Below, piece by piece: positions 843 to 41,146 of a stretch of 64,000 nt of DNA. The notes below the pieces were generated by a model. The model saw only the letters and a program-made list of their open reading frames with translations. It ran no database searches and was not told the DNA's origin. Position 1 is the stretch's first letter. Every line of letters begins with the position of its first letter. A program made the position numbers and the translations under genes. This DNA is from Alphaproteobacteria bacterium (GTDB lineage: Bacteria > Pseudomonadota > Alphaproteobacteria > SHVR01), in contig SHVR01000004.1 in NCBI GenBank assembly GCA_009694185.1, forward strand, positions 1,933-65,932, read 5' to 3'.

Positions 843-1979
843 ATGAAAATGAAAGCCGCCGTGCTGACCGTTTGCGGCGCACCCCAACCCTGGGCGCTGA
901 GCCAGCCGATCAAGATACAAGAGGTCGACCTCGACCCGCCCGGCGAAGGCGAAGTGTTGGTCAAGGTGGGGGGCGCCGGCCTCTGTCATTCCGATCTCTC
1001 GCTGGTCAATGGCGACCGGCCGCGCCCGGTGCCCCTGGTGCTCGGCCATGAAGGGGCCGGCGAGATCGTCGAAGTCGGCCGGGCCGTGCATGACGTGAAG
1101 GTGGGCGACCACATTTGCTTCACCTTCAATGTGAGCTGCGGGCGGTGCCGGCGCTGTCTCGAGGGCAAGCCCTATATCTGCGAACGCTCGGTCGTGCCAC
1201 GCGCCGCCGGGGAATTGCTCGCGGGCGGCAAGCGCTTGAGCAAGGATGGCCAGCCCATCGGCCACCAGTCGGGTGTCTCCTGCTACGCCGAATATGCGGT
1301 CGTCGACCGGGGTTCGGTCGTCGTCATCGACCGGAGCCTGCCGCTCGATATAGCGGCCCTCTTCGGCTGCGCGGTGGTGACGGGCGTGGGTGCGGTGGTC
1401 AACACCGGCCAGATCCGGCCGGGCAGCACCGTCGCGATCGTGGGCCTCGGCGGTGTCGGCCTCTCGGGCCTCCTGGGCGCCAAGCTCGGTGGCGCCGGGC
1501 GCATCATCGCCATCGATCTTTCGGACGAGAAGCTTGGCCTCGCCCGCCAGTTGGGCGCCACCGACACGGTCAATGCCCGCGAGGCCAACCATGTGGCCGA
1601 AGTGCGCGACATGACCGATGGCGGCGTCGATTATTCCTTCGACCTGGCGGGAACCATCAAGTCCATGGAAACGGCCTATGCGGTGATCCGCGCCGGCGGC
1701 ACGGTGGTCACGGCCGGCCTCTCGCCCACCGGCGCCAAGTTCGCCTTCCCCCAGGCCGAACTGGTCTCGGAGGAAAAGACCATCAAGGGAAGTTACATGG
1801 GTAGTTGCGTGCCGGTGCGCGACATCCCGCGCTATATCGGCCTCTACCAGCAAGGCCGGTTGCCGGTCGACCGCATGGTCAGCCAGCGCATCGGCCTTAA
1901 CGAGGTCAACGAAGGCTTCGACCGCCTGCAATCAGTCTCCACCGTCCGCCAGCTCCTGGTGCCGCACGGGGTGCGTTGA
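843..1979 (+). CDS. Zn-dependent alcohol dehydrogenase family oxidoreductase
   Basis: GLCHSDLS and GHEGAGEIVEVG zinc-ligand motifs, and a Rossmann GLGGVG motif. 378 aa, high GC3. Confidence 0.85.
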   Translation: MKMKAAVLTVCGAPQPWALSQPIKIQEVDLDPPGEGEVLVKVGGAGLCHSDLSLVNGDRPRPVPLVLGHEGAGEIVEVGRAVHDVKVGDHICFTFNVSCGRCRRCLEGKPYICERSVVPRAAGELLAGGKRLSKDGQPIGHQSGVSCYAEYAVVDRGSVVVIDRSLPLDIAALFGCAVVTGVGAVVNTGQIRPGSTVAIVGLGGVGLSGLLGAKLGGAGRIIAIDLSDEKLGLARQLGATDTVNAREANHVAEVRDMTDGGVDYSFDLAGTIKSMETAYAVIRAGGTVVTAGLSPTGAKFAFPQAELVSEEKTIKGSYMGSCVPVRDIPRYIGLYQQGRLPVDRMVSQRIGLNEVNEGFDRLQSVSTVRQLLVPHGVR

Positions 1980-1992
1980 GGCAGGGCGGCCC

Positions 1993-2490
1993 TCAGGACT
2001 TGTCGCGGATCGCGGCCTCGAATAGATCGAGAGCGGCGAGCGCGAAGGCCCACATATTGGCGTCGCGATCGGCGCTCGCGGTTTCTAGCGTGATCACCCG
2101 TTCGGCGACGCCGGCCACCGCCATGCAGCTATGGCCGGCGGCATCGCCATAGCGATTACCGGTCGGACCCGCCGCACCCGTTTCGCTCAAGCCCCAGCTC
2201 GTGGCGAGGCGCCCGCGTACGGTACGGGCGAGGAGTTGGGCATAGGGCTCGGAGCTGGAGCGGATGCCGGTCATCTGGTCGAGGGAAATTCCGACCAGTC
2301 CCTGGCGCGCGGCGGCGGTGTAGACGACGCCACCGCCCATGAAATAGACCGAGGCGCCGGGAACGGCCAAGAGCGCCGCCGAAATGAGGCCGCCGGCCGA
2401 GCTTTCGGCGACGGCCACGGTCTCGCGGCGGTCCTTCAGGCGTCCGCCGATACGCGTGGCGGATGCGACAAGATCGGTCCAACCCGGCAT
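1993..2490 (-). CDS. CinA-family (PncC-like nicotinamide-nucleotide amidohydrolase domain) protein
   Basis: VAESSAGGL...Y.A motif typical of the CinA C-terminal domain. I chose the ATG at 2490 because a GGGGAGG Shine-Dalgarno lies 5 nt upstream. The track ORF begins at a TTG at 2505. Confidence 0.8.
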   Translation of the reverse strand: MPGWTDLVASATRIGGRLKDRRETVAVAESSAGGLISAALLAVPGASVYFMGGGVVYTAAARQGLVGISLDQMTGIRSSSEPYAQLLARTVRGRLATSWGLSETGAAGPTGNRYGDAAGHSCMAVAGVAERVITLETASADRDANMWAFALAALDLFEAAIRDKS

Positions 2491-2512
2491 GACAACCTCC
2501 CCCAATCCCGTA

Positions 2513-3559
2513 TCAATGGCGACCGGCGACGACGTCGCGCATGGCCCGGACGACCCGTTCGATATCGGCGCGGCTCACATCCAGGTGCGTGACGGCGCGC
2601 ATGCGATGGCCGTCGCCCGAACCGACGCGAATACCCTTGGCGAGCAGACGTTCGTAAACTTGCTCGGAGGTGAGGCCCGTGCCCGTCACATCGAAGAACA
2701 CCAGATTGGTCGCGATCTCGGCCGGGTCCAGTACGATGCCCGGAATCTGCGCCAAGCCCTGGGCGAGGAGGCGGGCATTGGCGTGGTCCTCGGCCAGACG
2801 CTCGATATTGTGGTCGAGGGCGTAGACCCCGGCGGCCGCGATGATGCCGGCCTGGCGCATGGCGCCGCCGAACTGGTGCTTCCAGCGCCAGGCGTCCTCG
2901 ATGAAGTCGGCCGAGCCGCAGAGCACGGCACCCACCGGGCAGCCAAGCCCCTTGCTGAGGTCAAGCCAGGCGGAATCGCAGGGGCTCGCATAATCCTTGG
3001 CCGAGACGCCGGTCGCGATCACCGCGTTCATCAGGCGCGCGCCATCCATATGCACCTTGAGTTCGTTTTTGTGAGCGGTGTCGCAAACCTCGCGCAGCGT
3101 CTCCAGGGGCCAGATCGTGCCGCCGCCGAAATTCGAGGTCTGCTCGAGCGACACCAGGCGCGCCCTGGGCCGGTTGCGCCGATAGGGCCGAATCGACGCC
3201 TGCAATTGCTCGGCGGTGAAGATGCCGCTCTTGCCGTCGACCGGGCAGAGCATGACGCCCGACAGCGCCGCCGGACCGCCGGCCTCGGCATGGATGGGGT
3301 GGGCCGTCTTGTCGAGGATCACCTCGTCGCCCTGGCGGCAATAGACCCGGTAGGAGATGGCGTTGCACATGGTGCCGGACGGCACGAAGACGCCCGCCTC
3401 GTGACCCAGCAATTCCGCCACCCGCTCGCAGAGCTTGTTGACGGTCGGGTCTTCATTCGCCTGCTCGTTACCAACTTCCGCTTCAGCCATGGCCTTACGC
3501 ATGGCGGGCGAGGGACGGGTCAAGGTATCGCTGTAGAGGTCGACCTGAATGGCGGCCAT
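2513..3559 (-). CDS. ltaE: Low-specificity L-threonine aldolase (beta-eliminating lyase family)
   Basis: N-terminus VDLYSDTLTRPSPAMRKAMAEAEVGNEQ, plus GTMCN and a PLP-fold pattern. Start taken at ATG 3559 (MAAIQVDLYSDT). Confidence 0.8.
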   Translation of the reverse strand: MAAIQVDLYSDTLTRPSPAMRKAMAEAEVGNEQANEDPTVNKLCERVAELLGHEAGVFVPSGTMCNAISYRVYCRQGDEVILDKTAHPIHAEAGGPAALSGVMLCPVDGKSGIFTAEQLQASIRPYRRNRPRARLVSLEQTSNFGGGTIWPLETLREVCDTAHKNELKVHMDGARLMNAVIATGVSAKDYASPCDSAWLDLSKGLGCPVGAVLCGSADFIEDAWRWKHQFGGAMRQAGIIAAAGVYALDHNIERLAEDHANARLLAQGLAQIPGIVLDPAEIATNLVFFDVTGTGLTSEQVYERLLAKGIRVGSGDGHRMRAVTHLDVSRADIERVVRAMRDVVAGRH

Positions 3560-3646
3560 GGCATTGCTCCGGGGTGTCGGGGGTCGGGTATCAGGATAGA
3601 ACAAAATGCGGACGAGGTTGACTTGAATCATCACTCCTGACGTCGG

Positions 3647-5200
3647 TTACTCCGCCGCCTGGGGTGGAGCGGTTGGCCGCCAGCGCAGCACCGGCTGTCG
3701 AGCGGCACGCGTCTCGTCGAGGCGGCGGCGGGGAGCGAGGCGCGGCGCCTCGTGAAAGAACGCGGCATCGCCCGCCTTGGCGCGGCTGGCCAGCGCCCGC
3801 ATCGTTTCGACGAACCGGTCAAGCGAGTCCTTGCTCTCGCTCTCGGTCGGCTCAATCAGCATGGCGCCGTGTACGACCAGCGGGAAATACACCGTCATCG
3901 GATGATAGCCCTCGTCGATCATCGCCTTGGCAAAATCGAGAGTGGTGACACCTGTGTCCTTGAGGAAGCGGTCGTCGAACAAGCACTCATGCATGCAGGG
4001 GCCGGGATAGGGCGCGCTCATCACGTCCGACAGCCGCGCCAGCACATAATTGGCGGCCAGCACCGCGTCGCTCGATGCCTGCAACAGCCCGTCGCCGCCA
4101 TGGCTCAGCATATAGGCGAGTGCCCGCACGAACATGCCCATCTGGCCATGGAATCCCTTGAGGCGCCCGAACGGCTTGGCATCGCCTTCGCCCGTTTCCA
4201 CCAGTCGGAAGCCCTTGTCCCCGTGCACCACCCAGGGCACCGGCGCGAAGGGTGCCAAGGCCGCCGAGAGTACCACCGGGCCGCTGCCCGGCCCACCGCC
4301 GCCGTGCGGCGTCGAGAAGGTCTTGTGCAGATTGATGTGCATGGCGTCGATGCCGAGATCGCCGGGCCGCACCCGGCCGACGATGGCGTTGAAATTGGCG
4401 CCGTCGCAATAGAAGAAGGCGCCCGCCGCATGGACGCGCCGCGCGATCTCGACGATGTCGTTCTCGAACACGCCACAGGTGTTGGGATTGGTCAGCATGA
4501 TCGCCGCGACATCGGGACCGAGCTTGGCCGTCAGTGCCGCGAGGTCGACCCGGCCGCGCGCGTCCGCCGGCAACTCGTCCACCGTATAGCCGATGGCGGC
4601 GGCGGTCGCCGGATTGGTGCCGTGGGCCGACGCCGGAACAAGAACGCGCCGGCGCGCGTCGCCCCGGTCCTCAAGCGCCGCCCGGATCGCCACCATGCCG
4701 CACAGCTCGCCATGGGCGCCAGCGCCAGGCGAGAGCGCCACCGCCGGCATGCCGGTCAGGACCTTGAGCCAGTGGGCCACCATGTCGATCAGCTCCAGCG
4801 CGCCCTGAGTGGTGCCGGTCGGCTGCATCGGGTGCAAATCGGCGAAACCGGGCAAGCGCGCCAGGCGCTCATTGAGGCGGGGATTATGCTTCATGGTGCA
4901 GGAGCCGAGCGGATAGAGCCCGGCGTCGATGGCGTAGTTCTTCTGCGAGAGGCGGGTGTAGTGGCGCACCACCTGGGGCTCGGCGAGGCCCGGCAGGCCG
5001 ATCGGCCCCTGGCGGGCGAGTGCCCCCAGGCGCGAAGCCACGGGGGGCGGTGCTGGCAGGTCCACGCCCGTTCGCCCGGGCGCGTCGAGCTCGAAGATAA
5101 GCGGCTGTTCCATCGCCAAGCCGCGATGGCCGCTGACCGTGGCCGTGGCCGACGCGCTCGGCGTCGCGGGCCGCGTCGGGCGGCCTTCCATGCCGGTCAT
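3647..5200 (-). CDS. gcvPB: Glycine dehydrogenase (aminomethyl-transferring) subunit 2
   Basis: Conserved GcvPB sequence ([26 protein letters not shown]). The ATG at 5200 overlaps the gcvPA stop (ATGA). Confidence 0.9.
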
Positions 5201-32103: not shown

Positions 32104-32165
32104 GCCGGCCTCGGGCGCGCCGGCGCCGACACTGCCGCTGGAGCCGAAGCGAGGCATGCGTTACC

Positions 32166-33128
32166 ATGCCACCCGGACGACCCAAAGGGGACCGATCGGT
32201 GACAGGAAGCCAACCATCAGGTGCCATGGCCGAGGTCGGATGGCCGGTCGCGTCCGACGCCGAGGCTGTCGCGGTCCTCGCCGAGGCGCGGAGCGAGAGC
32301 GAACAGTTGAAACGGGCCCTGATTGCCCAGCGCGAGACCCTCAATCGGCTGGAACAGGCCCGTGAGGAGGCGGTGCAGCTTGCAAGAGCCGCTGGCGAAG
32401 CCGAGATCCGGCAATTGCGCCAGACCATCCAGGCGATGCGTGACGAGATGGATGAGCGCCGTGGATTGCACGTCGACGCCGTGCAGGCCGCCAAGGTAGC
32501 GGGGCAGCACGAACTGCAACAGTTGCAGAACACGGTGCGGCAGATGCGCGACACGCTGGATCACCAGCGTCACGAAGCGCAACGGGCCTTGCAGGAGGCC
32601 ATCGCCGCCGGGCGCTCGGAGGCACAGCAGCTTCAGGGCACGGCTCAGGCGCTCCGCGACGAGCTGGACGAGAACCTGAGACTGCACGTCGAGGCTATGC
32701 GGGCGGCCAGGACGGAAGGGCAGCACGAACTGCAACAGTTGCAGAACACGGTGCGGCAGATGCGCGACGCGCTGGATCACCAGCGGCACGAAGCGCAACG
32801 GACCTTGCAGGAGGCCGTCGCCGCCGGGCGGGCGGAGGCACAGCAGCTCCAGGGTACGGCTCAGACACTCCGCAACGAACTGGACGATGCCCATCTCGAG
32901 CGGCACCGCCTCCTCCAGGCAGCCGCGCAAATCGCCGCCGCGGAAGCCGATCAACTGCGCGAGACGGCGCGTCGCCTGCGCGACGCCCTACAGGTCAAGG
33001 AAATCGAGCTTCCTGAGCAGGCCCAACGACAGGAGCGGCTGCGCCGCGACGAGGTGCGGCAACTGCAAGCAACGATCCACGTGTTGCGGGATCAGATGGA
33101 GAGCCAGCGTGACCGATCGATTGTCTGA
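32166..33128 (+). CDS. Coiled-coil repeat protein (36-residue periodicity), function unknown
   Basis: 7-8 units of about 36 aa (G..E..QL..T....RD.LD........A...A...). Alternative starts are GTG 32199 and ATG 32226. The 3' end overlaps the cyclase start. Confidence 0.65.
   Translation: MPPGRPKGDRSVTGSQPSGAMAEVGWPVASDAEAVAVLAEARSESEQLKRALIAQRETLNRLEQAREEAVQLARAAGEAEIRQLRQTIQAMRDEMDERRGLHVDAVQAAKVAGQHELQQLQNTVRQMRDTLDHQRHEAQRALQEAIAAGRSEAQQLQGTAQALRDELDENLRLHVEAMRAARTEGQHELQQLQNTVRQMRDALDHQRHEAQRTLQEAVAAGRAEAQQLQGTAQTLRNELDDAHLERHRLLQAAAQIAAAEADQLRETARRLRDALQVKEIELPEQAQRQERLRRDEVRQLQATIHVLRDQMESQRDRSIV
32468..32899. repeat. Tandem duplication, 2 x 216 bp, inside the coiled-coil gene
   Basis: Unit 1 is 32468-32683 and unit 2 is 32684-32899. 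An identical 51-mer (GGGCAGCACGAACTGCAACAGTTGCAGAACACGGTGCGGCAGATGCGCGAC) occurs at 32502 and 32718. Confidence 0.85.
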
Positions 33129-35466
33129 GCGGGCGGAACAGCCAAGGCGTCCCCTCGTGGCGCCGGTGGCGCCGGCCAAGCGCCGAGGGGCGGCCGCCGC
33201 GAAAAGTGCGCCGAGGGAAGAACTGCGCCGCGCGAAGGTGCTTTTGGATGTCGCGCGCCGCTGTGCGCTCGGCACCACCCTCGACAACGTGCTGCATACC
33301 ATCGTCGAAATCGCGACCCGCGAGCTTGGTTGCGAACGCGCGACCCTGTTCCTCGCCGATCTTGGGTCCGGCGAGCTCTACTCGCGCATGGCACTTGGCG
33401 ACCTCAACCGGGAAATTCGCATCCTGAATAACAGCGGCATCGCCGGGCATGTTTTTCAATCCGGGGAAGGCGCCATCGTCGACGACGTCTATACCGATGC
33501 CCGTTTCAACAGTCTGGTCGATCAGCAGACCGGGTTCGTCACCCGCTCCATCGCGTGCGTTCCGGTGCACACCGTGCGCGGCGAACTGATCGGCGTGATG
33601 CAGTGCCTGAACAAGATCGAAGGCCGCTTCACGCCGGACGATCTCTCGCTCGTGGCCGAAATGACGACGCAGGCGGCGGTGGCCTTGCAGAGCGTGCAAT
33701 TCGTCGAACGCCTGGCCGAGAACCGGGCCAAGGAGATGTCCTTTCTCGACCTGGTGGCGGACATCACCTCGGAATTCGACCTATCGAAACTATTGCAGCG
33801 GGTGATGACCGAGGCGACCCGCATGCTGGGCGCCGACCGCTCCACGCTTTTTCTCAACGACGAGAAAACAGCAACTCTGTTCGCGCGCGTCGCCCAGGGG
33901 TCGAAGATCGGCGAGATCCGTTTTCCCAATCATCTGGGGATCGCCGGCACCGTCTTTCAGACCGGCACCAGCGTCCACATTCCTTACGCCTATGCCGATC
34001 TGCGCTTCAATACACTGTTCGACAAGCAGACCGGCTACTTCACACGTTCCATTCTCTGTGTCCCCATCGTCAACAAGGCAGGCAAAGTGATCGGGGTCAC
34101 GCAAGTCCTTAACAAGGTGGCCGGGCCCTTCACCGACGAAGACGAGGCCCGCCTGAAGGCCTTCACCGCCCAGGTTGCCATCGCACTCGAGAATACCAAG
34201 CTGTTCGACGACGTTCAGCGGATGAAGAACTACAACGAAAGCATGCTCGAGAGCATGTCGAACGGCGTCATCACCATCGACGAATCGGGCAATGTGGTGA
34301 CCTGCAACAAGGCGGGGCTCAGGATCCTCGAGTTCGATTCGCGCGGCATCGTCGGGCATGCGATTGCAGACGTGTTCAAGGACGACAATGCCTGGGTGAT
34401 CGAACGGATCGCCAAGGTGAAGGAAGAGCAACAGAACAACGTGACCATGGACGCGCAACTGACGATCGGCGGCGAACCGACCTCGGTCAACATGACCGTT
34501 TTGCCGCTGCTGAGTGGCGAGGGCGAGGGCGAGGGCGAGGGCAAGCTCGGTTCCATGGTGATGTTCGAGGACATCAGCTCCGAGAAACGCATGAAATCGA
34601 CGATGTCCCGATACATGGACCCAACCATCGTCGAGCAGATGCTGGAAAGCCGCGGCTCGGAGATTATGGGGGGTGCCGCCGCCGAGGCGACGATCATGTT
34701 CACCGACATCCGCGGATTCACGACCATCACCGAGGAGTACGGGGCGCAGGGCACCGTTTCATTCTTGAACCAGTATTTCGAGCTGATGGTCGAGTGCATC
34801 TCCCGCGAGGGCGGCATGCTGGATAAGTTCATCGGCGACGCCATCATGGCTTGCTTCGGTTTGCCGGTGCCCAAGGACGACGACGCGGATCGCGCCGTGC
34901 GTGCCGGCATCTCCATGATCCGAGAGTTGTGGCGCTGGAACGACGAGCGCCGCCGCACCGGCCTGAAAACTGTTGACATGGGCGTCGGCATGAACACGGA
35001 CATCGTGGTTTCCGGCAACATCGGCTCGCCAAAGCGCATGGACTACACGCTGATCGGCGACGGCGTGAACCTGGCCTCGCGCCTGGAAAGCGCCTGCAAG
35101 GCTTACTCGGCGCGAATCCTCATCAGCGAGACGACTGTCGCCAAGCTGAAAGGCACCTACCGGATGCGCGACATCGATCTTGTCGTCGTCAAGGGAAAGA
35201 CCCAGCCGGTCGGCGTCTTCGAGATCCTCGACTATCATACCGAGGAGACATTTCCCAACCTGATGGACGTCGTGAACTACTTCAATGACGGCATTCGGCA
35301 CTACCGCTTGGGGAAATGGGCTCCGGCAATCGAGAAATTCACGCGCGCGCTCGACTTCAATCCCCACGACCAGCTTTCGCTGACTTATATCGACCGCTGT
35401 GGCCAACTACAGGCCGGGCCGCCGGACGGCCCATGGGACGGCGTGTGGCGGATGAAGGAGAAGTAA
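33109..35466 (+). CDS. GAF-GAF-PAS-class III adenylate cyclase with C-terminal TPR-like tail
   Basis: Two GAF-like blocks (..ATLFL.D....LYS.., ..STLFLNDE..). A PAS-like block (MLESMSNGVITIDESGNVV.CN). Cyclase motifs (IMFTDIRGFT, DKFIGDAIMACFG, GDGVNLASRLES). The GTG at 33109 has a GGAGAG Shine-Dalgarno. Confidence 0.85.
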   Translation: MTDRLSERAEQPRRPLVAPVAPAKRRGAAAAKSAPREELRRAKVLLDVARRCALGTTLDNVLHTIVEIATRELGCERATLFLADLGSGELYSRMALGDLNREIRILNNSGIAGHVFQSGEGAIVDDVYTDARFNSLVDQQTGFVTRSIACVPVHTVRGELIGVMQCLNKIEGRFTPDDLSLVAEMTTQAAVALQSVQFVERLAENRAKEMSFLDLVADITSEFDLSKLLQRVMTEATRMLGADRSTLFLNDEKTATLFARVAQGSKIGEIRFPNHLGIAGTVFQTGTSVHIPYAYADLRFNTLFDKQTGYFTRSILCVPIVNKAGKVIGVTQVLNKVAGPFTDEDEARLKAFTAQVAIALENTKLFDDVQRMKNYNESMLESMSNGVITIDESGNVVTCNKAGLRILEFDSRGIVGHAIADVFKDDNAWVIERIAKVKEEQQNNVTMDAQLTIGGEPTSVNMTVLPLLSGEGEGEGEGKLGSMVMFEDISSEKRMKSTMSRYMDPTIVEQMLESRGSEIMGGAAAEATIMFTDIRGFTTITEEYGAQGTVSFLNQYFELMVECISREGGMLDKFIGDAIMACFGLPVPKDDDADRAVRAGISMIRELWRWNDERRRTGLKTVDMGVGMNTDIVVSGNIGSPKRMDYTLIGDGVNLASRLESACKAYSARILISETTVAKLKGTYRMRDIDLVVVKGKTQPVGVFEILDYHTEETFPNLMDVVNYFNDGIRHYRLGKWAPAIEKFTRALDFNPHDQLSLTYIDRCGQLQAGPPDGPWDGVWRMKEK
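34516..34542 (+). repeat. (GGCGAG)4GGC microsatellite encoding GEGEGEGEG
   Basis: Direct reading of 34516-34542 inside the cyclase gene. Confidence 0.9.
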
Positions 35467-35494
35467 GCCGGCATGGCGTTACGGGGAGTTTCGG

Positions 35495-35563
35495 GTTTCG
35501 GGGACACAAAACTTAATTGACGTCGCGTGGCGCCACGTTAATTAAGTTTTGTGTCCCCGAAAC
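35495..35563. repeat. 24-bp perfect inverted repeat with 21-nt spacer (candidate bidirectional terminator or protein-binding palindrome)
   Basis: Left arm GTTTCGGGGACACAAAACTTAATT (35495-35518). Right arm AATTAAGTTTTGTGTCCCCGAAAC (35540-35563). The spacer contains the 12-bp palindrome CGTGGCGCCACG. Confidence 0.75.
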
Positions 35564-37443
35564 GCCGTCTCGCCCTTGGCCGCCTCCAGGGCCTCCTGGG
35601 CGGCAAGCCAGGCCGCTTCCGCCTCGGTGAGTGCGCGATCGAGCTCGGCCACGCGTTTCTGGATCGCCACGACCGCATCGCCGGCCTGTCGATAGAGGGC
35701 GGGGTCGGCAAGCTCGGCATGCGCCCGGCGCCGCTCCTGGATCAGCTTCTCGACTCGCCTCTCCGCTCGGCTCGCCGCATCCAGGAGCGGCCCCCGGGCG
35801 GCGCGCGCCTCGGCGCCCGCGCGCCGTGCCTCGCGCCGATTGCCCCGCGCGGCCGGTCGCTCGGCCCGCCCGTTGCCCCGCCGCTCCTCCAACAGCAGGC
35901 GCCGGTAATCCTCGATATCGCCGTCGAAGGGCCGGCAAGTGCCATTGGCCACGAGCCAGAGCCGCTCGGCGCAGAGTTCGATCAAATGCAGATCGTGGGT
36001 CACCAGGATGACCGCGCCCGTATATTCGTTGAGAGCGTCGATCAGCGCCTCGCGCGAAGCGAGGTCGAGATGGTTGGTCGGTTCGTCGAGCAGCAGCAAT
36101 TGCGGCTTGGCGCGCATGACGCTGGCGAGCAGCAGGCGAGCCTTCTCGCCGCCCGAGAGCGAGCCGATCGCCAAATCGGACTTCTCTTGGCCGAGCCCGA
36201 AGCGGCCGAGATGGGCGCGGACCGCCGTCTCGGTCACCTTGCCCATCAGCGCCGCCATGTGGGAGAGGGCGGTCCGGTCGAGATCGAAGACCTCGGTCTC
36301 CTCTTGCGCGAAATAGCCGACCCGGAGCCGGGGCGAGCGGAAAACATGCCCGCCTTCGGCCGCGAGCGCGCCCTGGAACAGCCGCAAGAGCGTCGTCTTA
36401 CCGTTGCCGTTGGCGCCCATGAGGGCGATGCGGTCTTCCATGTCGATGCGCAAGCCCAGCCCCCTGAGCACCGGCTGGCCGGGGCTGTAGCCGACGCTCG
36501 CATGGTCGAGCGTGATCATCGGCGGCGCCACGGCCTCGGGCGCCGGGAAATCGAAGCGCATGTCGGGGGCCGGTGGTGGTGGCGGTGCCGCGTCGAGACG
36601 CGCCAGCGCCTTTAGACGAGACTGGGCTTGGCGCGCCTTGCTCGCCTTGTAGCGGAACCGGTCGACAAAGGCCTGGATGTGCTTGCGTTGGGCTTCCTGG
36701 CTCGCATGGTGGGCGGCCTGGGTCTCGCGCTGGGCGGCATAGGTCGCCTCGAAACGGTCGTAGCCGCCGCTGTAAAGCGTGAGCTTGCCATGCTCGAGAT
36801 TGAGGATCGCGTCGACGGCGGTATTCAAGAGCGCCCGGTCATGGCTGACCAGCAGCATGGTGCCGGCATAGCTCGCCAAATGGCTTTCGAGCCAGAGGCG
36901 CGCCTCCAGGTCGAGATGGTTGCTGGGCTCGTCCAGCAGCAGCAAGTCGGAATCGAGGAAAAGCGTGGCGGCGAGCGCCACGCGCATGCGCCAGCCGCCC
37001 GAGAAGGAGTCGAGCGGGCGGCCCTGGGCCGCCGCGTCGAAACCCAGGCCGGCCAGCACCGACGCGGCCCGGGCGGGTGCCGCGGCGGCATCGATATCGG
37101 CCAGGCGCGCATGCAGTTCCGCCAGCCTGGCCCCGTCACTCGTCGCGTCCGACTCGGCGAGCAGGCGCGTCCGTTCCACGTCGCTCGCCAGCACGAAGTC
37201 GAGCGGCGATCGGCTGCCGCCGGGCATCGACTGGGCGACACTGGCGAGCCGGGTGCGCGAACCGCACGAGACGCTACCCCCATCCGGCGCGTACTCGCCG
37301 GTAATGAGGCGCAGCAGGGTGGACTTGCCGGTACCATTGCGCCCCACGAGGCCGACTTTGTGGCGGTCGGGAATCGTCACCGAGGCACCGCCGAACAAGA
37401 CGCGGCCGCCGATCCGGAAGATGAGGTCCTTGATTTGCAACAT
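35542..37443 (-). CDS. ABC-F family ATPase (two NBDs, no TMD)
   Basis: Two Walker A motifs (GRNGTGKST, GANGNGKTT), two LSGG signatures, and a coiled C-terminal arm. Start at ATG 37443 (MLQIKDL). Confidence 0.9.
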   Translation of the reverse strand: MLQIKDLIFRIGGRVLFGGASVTIPDRHKVGLVGRNGTGKSTLLRLITGEYAPDGGSVSCGSRTRLASVAQSMPGGSRSPLDFVLASDVERTRLLAESDATSDGARLAELHARLADIDAAAAPARAASVLAGLGFDAAAQGRPLDSFSGGWRMRVALAATLFLDSDLLLLDEPSNHLDLEARLWLESHLASYAGTMLLVSHDRALLNTAVDAILNLEHGKLTLYSGGYDRFEATYAAQRETQAAHHASQEAQRKHIQAFVDRFRYKASKARQAQSRLKALARLDAAPPPPPAPDMRFDFPAPEAVAPPMITLDHASVGYSPGQPVLRGLGLRIDMEDRIALMGANGNGKTTLLRLFQGALAAEGGHVFRSPRLRVGYFAQEETEVFDLDRTALSHMAALMGKVTETAVRAHLGRFGLGQEKSDLAIGSLSGGEKARLLLASVMRAKPQLLLLDEPTNHLDLASREALIDALNEYTGAVILVTHDLHLIELCAERLWLVANGTCRPFDGDIEDYRRLLLEERRGNGRAERPAARGNRREARRAGAEARAARGPLLDAASRAERRVEKLIQERRRAHAELADPALYRQAGDAVVAIQKRVAELDRALTEAEAAWLAAQEALEAAKGETAFRGHKT

Positions 37444-37521
37444 GGGGCGGACCCATAGCACGGCTTTGAGTGCCGAAGAACCCGTTCGCTCCGACGCAAA
37501 ACCGTTCGGGCAAGATTAGGA

Positions 37522-38404
37522 TTAATTCGGGCCCTCGATGGCCTGCCCGCAACGTGGGCATGCGGTCGGGTGGCAGGCGCGGCACCAAGCTTTGCCACAG
37601 GACGGGCACGGCGCCTGGCCGGCGGGGTCGGTGATGTGGAGACGATCGTCGCAAACGAGACGCGATCGCCCCAGACCCAGGCCCCACTCGCTCGCCGGCG
37701 GCTCCATAAGACGCACCGCCGCGTGCCAGTCGATTCGCATGAGCCTCTCACCCTTGCGGCGTTTGACCAACACATCGAAGCGTTGTACTGGAACAAGCAA
37801 CTCCAGCCCCTGCACCCACTCGACCGTCACGCGCAGCGCGTAATTGTGGCGCAGATCGTCGAGCTTGGCGGCGTATTCCCGCTCCACCGCGGCGATCCGC
37901 AATGTCTCGCGCTTGCGGTCGGCGTCCGCCTTTTCGCCCGCGGCGCCGGCAAGGGTGGCGAGCTTCTTTTGAGCCGTGAGCCGCTGGTCATTGTGGTAGG
38001 CATGGACTCGACTGCAATCGCGGTCGAGACGGCGTCGCATGGTGCGCAGAAACGGCGCCATTTCGAGCCGCACATGGTGTTCGAGCAGTGGCCGAACCCT
38101 CGCTTCAAGCCTTGGCGCGTCCCAGCCCGGTTCCCACTGGCGGCGGACGTCTTGGTCCGGCGCTTGCCATTGCGAGCCTCCCGCCAACGACCACCGCAGC
38201 CGCGCCAATACGTCGTCGATGACCGCGCCGGTTCCTTGGTTGAACCCGAGCCAGATGAGCCCTTCGCGCTTCTCGTCGGAGACGGCGGTGTAACGGAAAG
38301 CCAGCAGCAGACATCGCGCCCAGGCCGCCGAGACACCCTGCAAGCGCCATGTGGCATTGGGCAGGTCGAGGACGTGGTCGAGCAGGCGTTTCGGGATCCG
38401 TGGG
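37522..38404 (-). CDS. C-terminal (main) part of the helicase-associated protein. Central coiled coil plus a terminal triple-CxxC zinc-ribbon
   Basis: High-GC3 frame with protein-like composition from about 38404 downward. Ends ..CPSCGKAWCRACHPTACPRCGQAIEGPN. No credible own start or Shine-Dalgarno (see findings). Confidence 0.6.
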
Positions 38405-38683
38405 GCTGGGCAACGGGCCCGCGAGTACGACCTGGCGCGCGGCCCAACGACCTCGGTCACCGAGAAGGGTGCCGAAGCGATCAAGCCAGTCGCCTTCGAA
38501 TCCAACCGGTGTCGCGCCGCTCGGAAGCTCGGCCCCGAAGCCGAGCCGCGCCAGTTCCGGCCAACCCATGGCCAAGCGGAGCGCTTCGGGCGCGAGCACT
38601 TCCAGGCCGTCCGGCTCCACCGCCTCGACGGCCGACCCTTCGATCTCCAGCACGTCGGCGACGAAATCGCGCAGCGCCCCCAT
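38403..38683 (-). CDS. N-terminal part of the same helicase-associated protein (frame broken at the G4 run 38402-38405)
   Basis: The ATG at 38683 has a GAGGGAG Shine-Dalgarno 6 nt upstream, just after the helicase stop. Protein-like until ..RQVVLAGPLP. After that the frame degenerates into an R/P/A/G-rich, low-GC3 tail running to 38105. Confidence 0.5.
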
Positions 38684-38694
38684 CGCCAGCTCCC

Positions 38695-40341
38695 TCACGC
38701 CGTTTCGAAATCTTCGCCGAACAGTGCCTCATCGAGTGCCTTGGCACCCTCATGCTGCCGCCGCGCCTGGTCGAGCCGTCGGCCCAGCGCATCGAAGGCA
38801 TCGGCCCGACCGGTCTCGGTCGCTTCGAGCCAGGCATCGAGCGCGAGATCCGGGAAGTCGCGCTCCTCCTCCAGGCCGCCGAGGATCGCGCCGACCTCAC
38901 CGACGGCCAGCTCGAACATGGATATCTTCTCCTCGAGCAGCGCCAACATCCGCTCTTCCAGCGTGCCGCGCGTCACGAGGTTGAAAACGAAGACCTCCCG
39001 GTTCTGGCCGATACGGTCGATGCGGCCGATACGTTGCTCGATCGCCATGGGGTTCCAAGGCAGATCGAAGTTGATGAGCGTGTTGCAGAACTGAATGTTG
39101 CGGCCCTCGCCGCCGGATTCCGTGCAGAGCAGCACGGACGCTTGGTCTCGAAAGTCGGCAATCGCCGCATCCTTCAGCGGCCCGCTGAGACTGCCATCGA
39201 AGCTGGTGAAGGAGATTCCGGTGCGCGAGAGCAAATCACCCAGGCGCGCCAGCGTCGCGCGGGAATGGGCGAAGACCAGCTTCTTCTCGGCCGGGTTGCG
39301 CCGAAGCAGGTCGAGGAGCGCCCCTTCCTTGCCACCGGTTTCAATCGCGGCCCAGCGTTCGGCCAGACCCCGCCACTCCAGGTCGCCGGGACGGCGTGCC
39401 GCGAAACGCGCCACGGCCGCCGCCGTCGCGGTGGGCGACGATCCGGCCGCGCCGAGCAGGTGGTGCAGCGCCAGCTGGTGGCGGCCGGCCTCGGCCGCGA
39501 GGCGGCGCGCCGCCGCGGCCAGATCGGCATAGGCCTCGACCTCGCCCGGTCGGCCATCGACACTCATCGTCACCGCGTGGCGGCGCGGCAGCTTCAGGGC
39601 GACGACGGCGCGGGTGTTGCCGATCATCGCGCCCCGCAACAATTCGCGCAGGTGCTCGGGATTCGCCGGCTGTCTCGGCTTGCCGGGCGTCATACAGAGA
39701 GCGCGGAACTCCTTGAGCGTCTTGAAGATGCCGGGCTTCAAGAGCGTCATCAGATTGTATAATTCGACAAGGTCGTTCTGCACCGGCGTCGCCGAGAGCA
39801 GCAGGAGGAAACGCTTGTTGAGCGCGTCGACGAGCTTCCAACTTTGGCTCGACCGGTCGCGCAGATGATGCGCCTCGTCGATGATGACGAGGTCGAAGAT
39901 GCCCCCGAGCAGATGCTCGGCATGCTCGCGTCGGCGAGCCGCCGCGATCGACGCGACGATGCGCTTCTGTTGCCAGAACGCCCGCGGGTCGTCGCGGAGC
40001 AGCGGGTCGTGGGTGGTCGCGAAGGAAAGGCGGAATTTAGTCTCCAGTTCCTCCCGCCATTGCCCAACCAGTGAAGCCGGCGTCAGCACCAGCACGCGCT
40101 CCGCCATGCCGCGCAACGCATACTCCTTGAGGACCATTCCCGCCTCGATGGTCTTGCCGAGGCCGACCTCGTCGGCGAGCAACACACGGCCGCGGAACTG
40201 CTTCAACACCTTCCGCACGGTCTCGATCTGATGCCGGTGTGGTTCAACGCCGGTGAGGTGCGGCAGGCAGAGAAGCTCGTCGAAGCCTTGCGCCAGGCCG
40301 AGATGGGTGAAGCGCTCGCGCAAATCCCACCAGGGGCCCAC
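38695..40341 (-). CDS. SNF2/RapA-like helicase core
   Basis: Motif I LADEVGLGKT, motif II DEAHHL, motif III LLLSATP, motif VI QRIGRIDRIGQ. The C-terminal ..ERMLALLEEKISMFE.. is typical of RapA/HepA-type enzymes. There is no Shine-Dalgarno before the GTG at 40341. Confidence 0.85.
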   Translation of the reverse strand: MGPWWDLRERFTHLGLAQGFDELLCLPHLTGVEPHRHQIETVRKVLKQFRGRVLLADEVGLGKTIEAGMVLKEYALRGMAERVLVLTPASLVGQWREELETKFRLSFATTHDPLLRDDPRAFWQQKRIVASIAAARRREHAEHLLGGIFDLVIIDEAHHLRDRSSQSWKLVDALNKRFLLLLSATPVQNDLVELYNLMTLLKPGIFKTLKEFRALCMTPGKPRQPANPEHLRELLRGAMIGNTRAVVALKLPRRHAVTMSVDGRPGEVEAYADLAAAARRLAAEAGRHQLALHHLLGAAGSSPTATAAAVARFAARRPGDLEWRGLAERWAAIETGGKEGALLDLLRRNPAEKKLVFAHSRATLARLGDLLSRTGISFTSFDGSLSGPLKDAAIADFRDQASVLLCTESGGEGRNIQFCNTLINFDLPWNPMAIEQRIGRIDRIGQNREVFVFNLVTRGTLEERMLALLEEKISMFELAVGEVGAILGGLEEERDFPDLALDAWLEATETGRADAFDALGRRLDQARRQHEGAKALDEALFGEDFETA

Positions 40342-40988
40342 CGTTCGGGCGCACGCACAACGGCGTGCAGGAGGGGCGCAAGGTTAGCCTCGGCCGCAAA
40401 AGAGATATCGATGTCGATTCTCGGCAGTGGCCGTGGCGGGTCTGGCGCGATCTCGGCAACGGGCAACGCGGCCCCCCGCGGCGGACCGGCCGGGCGAGAA
40501 TCGGGGACAGGCTTGATTTTGCTTCTTGCGGCCACCGCGCGCCGCCGGGAGAACAGCGGGTCGCGGTCCATGACAGCGTCGAGCTGCGCCACCAGCCAGC
40601 GCACGCGTTGCCGTCCGCCTGGGAAGTATTGAAGCACCGCGCGCCACTCGGTCAAACCATGGCATTCAAGGAGCGACCGGGCCGCCGAGCGCGTTTTCTC
40701 CTGCGTCAGCACCAGTGCGTGCAGCAGGTGATCGGTCGGCGTCGCGGCGTACCGCTTGGCGAACCGCTTGAGGAATACGCGCGCCCGCTCGGGTCGCCCG
40801 TCCAAGAGCGCCGCCGTGGCGGCGAGCATGAGGACGATCGGATCGCCGGGGCAGGTAGCAACCGCCGACTCGCCAAGCACGAGGAATCCGGAGTCACGAT
40901 CCGCGTCGTCGAAAGCCAGCGACAGCCGCTCCTTCCACGCGTCGGCATCGCCCGGCGGTTCGAAAGGAAGGGGAAATTGGTTCGGCAA
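40338..40988 (-). CDS. Uncharacterised N-terminal module, probably originally fused to the SNF2 core
   Basis: The TTG at 40988 has a GGAGG Shine-Dalgarno 9 nt upstream. Helical domain, then a Pro-rich linker, then ..RIDIDISFAAEANLAPLLHAVVRAPER. The frame has no stop until 40203, and that tail looks out-of-frame. Confidence 0.5.
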
Positions 40989-41146
40989 GGCGGCACGCCT
41001 CCACGGGCCGCGGTGTCAACAAGGCTAGCAGGCTCCGGGTGGGATCCGCACGCCCGCCTCAACCCTTGACAATGTGCGGGCGGGCGGGTCGAAATGGCGC
41101 CAATCAAGCCAATAAGTCTCGAACCGGATTTTTTGGGAGGTTTCGC

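Follow-up and report, generated by a model that had tools for sequence, protein, structure and literature searches.

Can a helicase gene and the small cysteine-rich gene that follows it form a system of their own and, if so, what is that system for? The question is raised by a minus-strand locus at 37522-40988 in a 64,000-nucleotide (nt) stretch of DNA from an alphaproteobacterium (contig SHVR01000004.1 of assembly GCA_009694185.1). This whole stretch is called the window here, and coordinates refer to it unless another contig is named. A first-pass annotation, made from the letters alone, had described the locus as a Snf2-type helicase with an unassigned N-terminal module and a zinc-ribbon partner, and all of the parts that it listed are present. 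The reading favored here, which we hold to be rather likely, is that the window has acquired, by horizontal transfer, a self-contained cassette of two genes whose copy here was recently inactivated. The intact cassette would encode a two-polypeptide remodeller of the RapA type with a probable role in genetic conflict.

The origin of the window copy is visible in a comparison with L147, the closest relative sampled. By blastn, positions 6-1924 of L147 correspond to 42967-41051 of the window, and positions 1946-3847 correspond to 37461-35563, such that 21 nt in L147 replace 3,589 nt. In L147, the genes for a LivK-like binding protein and an ABC-F protein are divergently adjacent with nothing between them, which constitutes an empty site. 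The pair and roughly 60 nt to either side of it are therefore an insertion in the window:

37462..41050, minus strand: inserted 3.59-kb cassette, consisting only of the helicase and partner genes and about 60 nt on each side, as delimited against L147.

The boundaries of this insertion show no target-site duplication, no terminal inverted repeats and no notable direct repeats. The insertion retains neither a tRNA nor a recombinase gene; the window as a whole has no tRNA gene. The flanks are ABC-F and Liv genes with no mobility gene beside the pair, just as the first-pass annotation had reported; it also rightly stated that the pair has no nuclease, methylase or PLD gene next to it. These ABC-F/Liv flanks are found at none of the other loci, and no flank is common to the 45 genomes compared. 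The ABC-F protein has one relative, in L147, at 80% identity and all others at 65% or less, and the names of these relatives are of Rhodospirillales type. The partner protein, in contrast, is 82% identical to proteins of Hyphomicrobiales, and this conflict of kinship argues for horizontal transfer.

Copies elsewhere travel on recognizable vehicles. Three near-identical loci (L001, L002 and L017) carry the pair in a tRNA-Ser element with a P4-type integrase, a MobA/MobL relaxase, AlpA and HigB. A tRNA-Arg gene is located 160 nt from a further copy, which also has an integrase fragment and IS630 nearby. Plasmid copies adjoin parAB, RelE/ParE, Phd and insertion sequence (IS) elements. The cassette is thus horizontally acquired and mobile.

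Some neighboring features of these loci may be recorded here. The tRNA-Ser(TGA) integrative mobilizable element spans about 2500-13300 of L001, L002 and L017, its pair is intact, and an open reading frame (ORF) resembling PD-Lambda-2_B occupies 2915-3292 of L001. In the window, a second insertion relative to L147 occupies 32111-35562. It holds a GAF/PAS nucleotide-cyclase ORF (32887-35466) and an ORF of about 300 amino acids (aa), and lies between ABC-F and the MTS-methyltransferase/UbiA genes, which directly adjoin ABC-F in L147. Because both insertions are absent from L147, the ABC-F gene has a lineage-specific insertion on either side. Sampling of the host lineage is poor: apart from the single 80% match, ABC-F (35542-37443) has nothing above 65% identity among 5.8 billion proteins.

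Is the inserted copy still alive? Four overlapping minus-strand ORFs cover the locus: 40203-40988 (261 aa), 38695-40341 (548 aa), 38105-38698 (197 aa) and 37522-38505 (327 aa). Searches by tblastn with intact homologues resolve these pieces into two genes with one frame change apiece. The N-terminal module of the helicase lies in the first ORF and its Snf2 core in the second, in different frames, and the partner is split across the third and fourth. Repair of the frames yields proteins of 764 aa and 386 aa, exactly the lengths foreseen by the first-pass annotation; intact homologues measure 770-774 aa and 383-386 aa. The two lesions are as follows:

40342..40343, minus strand: frameshift 1, one G lost from a GGG run (GGG>GG); homologues read CCCGAACGGGAGGGCC and the window reads CCCGAAC-GGTGGGCC, from alignment to six intact homologues.
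38389..38391, minus strand: frameshift 2, one A gained in an AA run (AA>AAA); homologues read CCCGAA-CGCCTG and the window reads CCCGAAACGCCTG, from alignment to six intact homologues.

In tblastn alignments, the first lesion changes the frame from 3 to 2 and the second from 1 to 2. The first-pass annotation had treated the breaks as something to be corrected, but they recur in independent assemblies made at the level of reads. Frameshift 1 is reproduced in Logan contig L063 (SRR8561391), which has the same frameshifted N-module ORF, and Logan contigs L006 and L007 (SRR8561390 and SRR8561391) likewise reproduce frameshift 2. Two ENA contigs also carry the frameshifted partner. Identity between the Logan contigs and the window is 99.9-100%, with no gaps across either indel, and an assembly artefact is rejected on the strength of these matches from two runs. 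Programmed frameshifting is likewise rejected, since homologues run in frame through both sites and no slippery site is conserved.

A functional window copy nevertheless has something to recommend it. Its breaks could be sequencing errors or programmed frameshifts, or the TPR-like N-terminal protein, the 548-aa core (from GTG 40341) and a 320-aa partner fragment might act separately. Both indels fall in short homopolymers, all ATPase motifs are intact, and there are no stop codons or other lesions. Natural cyanobacterial forms of the helicase that lack the TPR module (see below) suggest that a core on its own is viable. In addition to the reproduced indels and the in-frame homologues, this proposal is opposed by the lack of a Shine-Dalgarno sequence ahead of GTG 40341. 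The break in the partner, moreover, cuts off its first ~98 residues, which form a whole domain kept by every family member, minimal forms included. A working copy is accordingly very improbable, and it is this lost domain that leads us to treat the pair as pseudogenes.

The window copy is thus a pseudogene pair in which both genes have been inactivated by real, lineage-specific single-base indels. The intact motifs and the absence of accumulated stop codons indicate that the inactivation is recent. The locus is best annotated as two pseudogenes rather than 'corrected'. Short homologues that comprise only the N-terminal module are truncations caused by contig ends or errors, and they are in frame past the indel site of the window. 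One helicase fragment (P0274) enters the alternative frame of the window just before the core and returns to frame about 30 residues on, probably through a pair of assembly indels and not for a biological reason. Separately, the plus strand carries a 730-aa open frame antisense to the pair (37570-39762). It is a spurious frame of the sort to be expected at 67% G+C, and nothing supports its being a gene.

If the window copy is dead, the nature of the unit has to be read from its relatives. The partner family has 1,505 matches among clusters at 90% identity and 766 representatives at 50% identity. Among the 150 representatives listed, none exceeds 411 aa, and full-length members measure about 370-400 aa. 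A pattern scan of 185,579 species genomes places close relatives at at least 48 species-level loci, so the cassette is rare. Most of these loci are in metagenome-assembled genomes (MAGs) of Hyphomicrobiales, joined by Bradyrhizobium, Rhodoplanes, Vineibacter, Devosia and Rhizomicrobium.

Throughout this distribution the two genes stay together. A helicase with the same N-terminal module lies immediately upstream of the partner at every locus whose contig extends far enough (about 45 genomes), and the same pairing occurs on three plasmids. Even partners that are only 26% and 35% identical are preceded by a Snf2 gene of 753-771 aa, with junctions that abut or overlap by 4 nt. A census of the flanks in the ~45 genomes revealed no third gene common to the loci. 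Apart from the pair itself, the families that recur most often in the flanks are generic, such as TctC, ABC transporters, cupins, oxidoreductases and an IS1595 transposase. The first-pass annotation had proposed a two-component unit to be checked by co-occurrence, and the pair passes that check as a real, deeply conserved two-gene operon.

Two cyanobacterial plasmids (p057_E of Nostoc sp. C057 and plasmid3 of Chondrocystis NIES-4102) carry minimal forms, with a helicase of 567-569 aa that lacks the TPR arm and a partner of 333-346 aa that lacks the zinc module. Because these forms exist, the Snf2 motor and a partner resembling the C-terminal part of RapA constitute the invariant core. These two examples hint that TPR arm and zinc module are optional additions and go together.

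Decay is common in the family. At least one gene is damaged in 13 of 45 evaluable species-level copies (29%), in some cases by large deletions. One decayed copy (L043, 3293-8536) has a deletion that joins helicase residue ~235 to partner residue ~122, and it adjoins an intact Snf2 gene of the DUF3670 type on the opposite strand. In plasmid RHOApc of Rhodovastum atsumiense (L144, 7428-8996), a 522-aa protein annotated as 'SNF2-related protein' has a damaged N terminus, with its Walker A motif RKGLGKT following unrelated sequence. Its partner is intact, and the helicase is probably a truncated copy.

These observations bear on the idea that the pair is a housekeeping analogue of RapA, that is, a vertically inherited chromosomal helicase/zinc-ribbon pair for recycling RNA polymerase or for handling transcription-replication conflicts. 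A conserved chromosomal pair of this kind was what the first-pass annotation considered at least as likely as an anti-phage role. The structural likeness of the partner to RapA, described below, is in keeping with it, as are the ordinary metabolic flanks in the window and at several other loci (for example, L060) and the failure to find any defence or effector domain. Yet the site is empty in the nearest relative, the 45 genomes have no flank in common, and copies reside on plasmids and in an element with integrase and relaxase genes. A housekeeping gene pair would also be hard to reconcile with so sparse a distribution (at least 48 close relatives in the pattern scan and 766 clusters at 50% identity), with the proportion of broken copies, with the death of both genes in the window or with a phylogeny incongruent with that of ABC-F. 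The housekeeping reading is largely refuted, and we regard it as improbable.

A different possibility is that the pair is an orphan remnant of a larger island of BREX, DISARM or ARMADA type that has lost its methyltransferase and other genes. The helicase core does resemble BrxHII and DrmD. The same two genes recur alone in ~45 genomes, on three plasmids and in distant relatives, however, and the inserted segment of the window holds no other gene. Descent by loss from such an island is therefore hardly credible, and the self-contained cassette is the unit whose two products are considered next:

40344..40988, minus strand: helicase N-terminal module, from a TTG start at 40988; TPR-like array at residues ~15-140, disordered Pro/Ala/Lys linker at ~140-195, then a conserved LPRIDIDISFAAE..LAPLL segment.
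38695..40341, minus strand: Swi2/Snf2 ATPase core, the 548-aa ORF (Pfam SNF2-rel_dom, 6.7e-32; Helicase_C, 6.7e-21), with a conserved C-terminal tail of ~100 aa.
38690-38696, minus strand: Shine-Dalgarno-like GAGGGAG, read from the sequence; it overlaps the helicase stop and lies 6 nt ahead of the partner ATG at 38683.
38392..38683, minus strand: small alpha/beta domain at the N terminus of the partner (residues 1 to ~98), from an AlphaFold2 (AF2) model of homologue P0001; putative counterpart of the degenerate restriction endonuclease (REase)-like 'Spacer' of RapA/BrxHII.
37654..38388, minus strand: partner middle region (residues ~99-343), long beta-hairpins and two antiparallel helices; putative counterpart of RapA/BrxHII's C-terminal alpha+beta domain.
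37522..37653, minus strand: C-terminal Cys/His zinc module of the partner and its stop codon; C344, H349, CPSC, CRAC and CPRC supply eight ligands.

The helicase begins with a module that the first-pass annotation could not assign to any family. In an AF2 model (m710cc7288c1f) it is an ordinary TPR-like array of eight helices; the predicted local distance difference test score (pLDDT) is 95-98 for residues 20-140 and drops below 66 in the linker. Its Foldseek matches are limited to generic TPR domains (best E 0.03), Pfam TPR_14 scores below threshold, and no Pfam, NCBIfam or PADLOC family matches it. The module ends in a short segment, noted earlier as a beta-like RIDIDISF stretch. Its conservation is borne out, in the form LPxIDIDIxF..DLAPLL, but AF2 does not confidently assign it a structure on its own.

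The Snf2 core is complete, as had been proposed. The translation shows motifs I, II, III and VI as DEVGLGKT, DEAHH, SAT and QRIGRIDRIGQ. Its top models in the PADLOC and NCBIfam libraries are those for RapA, DrmD, BrxHI/BrxHII and DpdE, all far under their curated cut-offs; by E-value in PADLOC, BrxHI/BrxHII is best (1.4e-73) and DrmD reaches 4.8e-68. These matches stop at model positions ~640-690 of 930-1040, about 300 short of the model ends. The helicase itself ends ~100 aa past Helicase_C and lacks the C-terminal domains of ~300 aa that fused helicases of the RapA type possess.

The partner gene follows at once. The helicase stop codon TGA occupies 38695-38697, and the partner ATG at 38683 comes 11 nt later, with the GAGGGAG noted by the first-pass annotation in between and overlapping the stop. 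Homologues begin with MGALRDF at the ATG equivalent to that at 38683 (tblastn), and in distant relatives the junctions between the two genes abut or overlap. Neither a promoter-like site nor a convincing terminator-like site was found for the pair in the window.

The fold of the partner was modelled with homologue P0001 and an alignment of 43 sequences, giving a pLDDT of 94.3 and a predicted template modelling score (pTM) of 0.83. The first domain has helices at 2-14, 33-39, 66-74 and 97-104 and strands at 18-22, 26-30, 44-48 and 80-84. In the 43-member family alignment, no acidic or lysine residue of this domain is invariant, and an active nuclease is rejected for that reason. In the middle region, strands at 111-134 and 138-148 precede helices at 189-244 and 250-280 (about 55 and 30 residues), which are followed by strands at 284-308 and 311-320. 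This region holds the invariant motifs NAT.RL, YTA.SDEKREG, RRL.RD and RRKGER.

The C-terminal cysteines are arranged as CPSC-x4-CRAC-x4-CPRC, with spacers one residue shorter than the x5 first reported, and a conserved C344...H349 pair stands ahead of them. C344, H349, C367 and C370 are invariant, and 90% or more of the 43 diverse members keep C359, C362, C375 and C378. Distant members have two more CxxC pairs, for up to 12 ligands. The eight Cys/His ligands probably bind two zinc ions.

Does the partner resemble anything known? At the level of sequence the view that it is unlike known families survives, in that no Pfam, NCBIfam or PADLOC family matches it. At the level of fold it does not, because the model matches RapA, and RapA alone, in the PDB. 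Foldseek finds significant matches to two E. coli RapA structures only (8t0l_F, E 1.8e-5, and 6bog_A, E 4.8e-5), both with probability 1.0 over ~320 columns, and the next match has an E-value of 0.22. In RapA and BrxHII, the motor is followed by a degenerate, inactive REase-like alpha+beta domain (the 'Spacer' of RapA) and then by a C-terminal alpha+beta domain with a coiled-coil insert (PMC12839542, section 27). The predicted order in the partner is a small alpha/beta domain (1-105), long beta-hairpins, two long helices, further long strands and the Cys/His cluster. With the domains mapped from the fold match and the published description, this predicted layout fits the C-terminal two-domain module of RapA/BrxHII. 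Fold match and domain order together suggest a remodeller of the RapA type that is divided, in this pair, into a motor and a C-terminal module.

How might such a split machine operate? The first gene would provide an ATP-driven core that translocates along double-stranded DNA. A TPR-like array, putatively for protein binding, would stand on its flexible linker where RapA has Tudor domains. The second gene, translationally coupled to the first, would supply in trans the Spacer and the C-terminal domain (CTD) with its coiled-coil insert, extended by the zinc module. Docking of the partner on the motor could then rebuild an architecture like that of RapA. In RapA itself, ATP-driven motion opens the clamp of RNA polymerase, and the Spacer wedges into the cleft and touches the beta' zinc-binding domain (bioRxiv 10.1101/2024.09.28.614012; PMC8501970). 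By analogy, the TPR and zinc modules may bring the complex to some protein machine on DNA (RNA polymerase is the likeliest), which translocation would pry open or strip from the DNA.

The role of such an activity would lie in genetic conflict, as defence of the host or of the carrying element or as interference with the transcription or replication of a competitor, rather than in housekeeping. A conflict role is likely because the cassette moves on plasmids and integrative mobilizable elements and also occurs as a naked insertion. Its mobile, patchy and decay-prone distribution, together with its kinship to defence helicases, probably points the same way, although by analogy.

Several observations weigh against this reading. 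A comparison by hhalign of the 43-member partner profile with E. coli RapA gives a probability of only 0.03, and the same profile, searched against PDB sequences, does not match RapA and finds only a marginal hit, to the zinc finger of rabphilin-3A (E 0.046). Kinship of partner and RapA at the level of sequence is rejected on these grounds. The structural match has a template modelling score (TM-score) of 0.27 by query length and a root-mean-square deviation of 12-14 Å; the low TM-score is due to differently arranged domains. The Foldseek output gives no residue ranges, and the assignment as Spacer and CTD draws on topology and the published description. RNA polymerase is a putative target, proposed from the likeness to RapA. 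The case for a conflict role is a weak one: flanks within 5 kb are mostly metabolic, with 3 HigB, 3 integrase, 2 transposase and 2 PIN matches among 146 ORFs, and these 146 ORFs (one half of the flank set) show no enrichment of PADLOC families. The pair contains no effector domain, and no phage copies were found in GenBank phages, IMG/VR or BFVD structures. Finally, some of the broken copies are in nanopore MAGs and may be assembly errors.

A firmer commitment would be to a stand-alone defence against phages or plasmids, in which motor and partner sense and block invading DNA without a methyltransferase or a nuclease, on the analogy of BREX type 3, DISARM, ARMADA, Dpd and ietHAS. The nearest library models are indeed those of defence helicases, and RapA-like helicases are central to several validated systems (PMC12839542, PMC12458937, PMC13069673). 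The mobile, patchy and often decaying distribution and the toxin-antitoxin neighbors are also what such a system might display. Yet the pair has neither a self/non-self module nor an effector, the partner has no PADLOC model, and known defence genes are not enriched in the flanks. Little evidence favors immunity strictly defined, and a dedicated defence, argued as it is by analogy, seems to us unlikely but worth keeping in mind. It overlaps with the conflict role proposed above, and the main difference is how firmly one commits to immunity.

A more specific proposal can be offered tentatively, with the odds against it. The intact family may be a self-sufficient conflict system in which a split RapA-type motor, through its detachable Spacer/CTD/zinc subunit and its TPR arm, recognizes the transcription or replication machinery of an invader and evicts or jams it without a nuclease, methylase or toxin. 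If so, immunity or interference between elements could be achieved by ATP-driven translocation, and the joint occurrence of TPR arm and zinc module, neither of which the minimal cyanobacterial plasmid form has, would mark them as an exchangeable pair for target recognition.

No description of a split RapA-type pair, or of a two-gene system of Snf2 and zinc proteins of this kind, was found in the literature searched or in PADLOC 2.0. Among known systems, the defence helicases BrxHII (BREX type 3 and BREX-related systems), DrmD (DISARM), ArmA (ARMADA), DpdE (Dpd) and IetH (ietHAS) are likewise RapA-like Snf2 proteins with a mobile, patchy distribution, and it is with such helicases that the core has its best PADLOC matches. 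They differ in being single proteins of ~900-1050 aa within multi-gene operons that include methyltransferases, PglZ/BrxC, YprA-type helicases or a protease/ATPase pair. At the annotated loci and in the flank census, the pair had no such partner gene beside it.

The BrxHI/BrxHII model matches the core only, to position 639 of 933; the helicase has no Tudor domain, its C-terminal module is on a second protein, and the BrxC, BrxXI/PglX, PglZ, BrxA and BrxF operon was not found in the flanks of the window, at the annotated loci or in the flank census. The DISARM DrmD models NF038317 and NF038318 score 233.7 and 222.4 bits against cut-offs of 610 and 950, and no DrmA, DrmB, DrmC or methyltransferase gene is a neighbor. 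DpdE (NF041062) scores 219.3 bits against 500; no dpd genes flank the window copy, and one sporadic DpdH-like match occurs among the 146 flank ORFs elsewhere. ZorD of Zorya (NF041790) scores 72.4 bits against 1500, and neither a nuclease domain nor ZorABC is present. The first-pass annotation had seen no match to the layouts of DISARM and Zorya, and scores and context agree, for BREX and Dpd as well. As for Hna, neither protein has a nuclease domain, there are two genes, and no Hna model is among the best 25 of 54 PADLOC matches, a dedicated Hna model not having been checked.

Two other arrangements combine an Snf2 motor with a zinc protein. Snf2 genes of the DUF3670 type in bacteria are commonly paired with a SWIM protein and share the two-gene layout. 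The helicase here has no DUF3670, and the partner shows the pattern C..H, CxxC, CxxC, CxxC rather than CxCxnCxH. The eukaryotic protein CDCA7 has a zinc finger of the CXXC type, which directs HELLS to DNA. HELLS is an Snf2 motor that needs a separate zinc-finger protein for its activation (PMC12885070). The partner matches neither zf-4CXXC_R1 nor any other Pfam zinc-finger family; the likeness to HELLS-CDCA7 is a functional analogy only, with no homology shown and with unrelated organisms and context.

The closest comparison remains E. coli RapA (HepA; 6BOG, 8T0L). The Swi2/Snf2 core with its intact motifs (RapA being the top NCBIfam model), the predicted fold of the partner and the order of domains after the motor are common to both. 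The equivalog model NF003426 reaches 238.3 bits against a cut-off of 576, in two stretches that lie in the core only, and the fused Spacer and CTD are lacking. In RapA this module is joined to the motor, whereas here it would be on a separate, translationally coupled protein. The tandem Tudor N-terminal domain of RapA, an autoinhibitor of the motor that also touches the beta' zinc-binding domain, is replaced here by a TPR-like array, or by nothing in the cyanobacterial plasmid forms. RapA has no zinc module and is encoded by a core gene, whereas the partner carries an added Cys/His module and the pair is mobile and accessory.

Motors of the RapA type thus serve both as a housekeeping recycler of RNA polymerase and as the core of BREX type 3, DISARM, ARMADA and Dpd. 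Compared with all of these, the family described here appears to place the Spacer/CTD module on a protein of its own; it has a zinc module in addition and moves about as a minimal cassette of two genes. It offers a naturally simple system in which to ask what the module recognizes, whether motors and modules can be mixed and matched, and whether eviction of a polymerase could by itself be a strategy of conflict.

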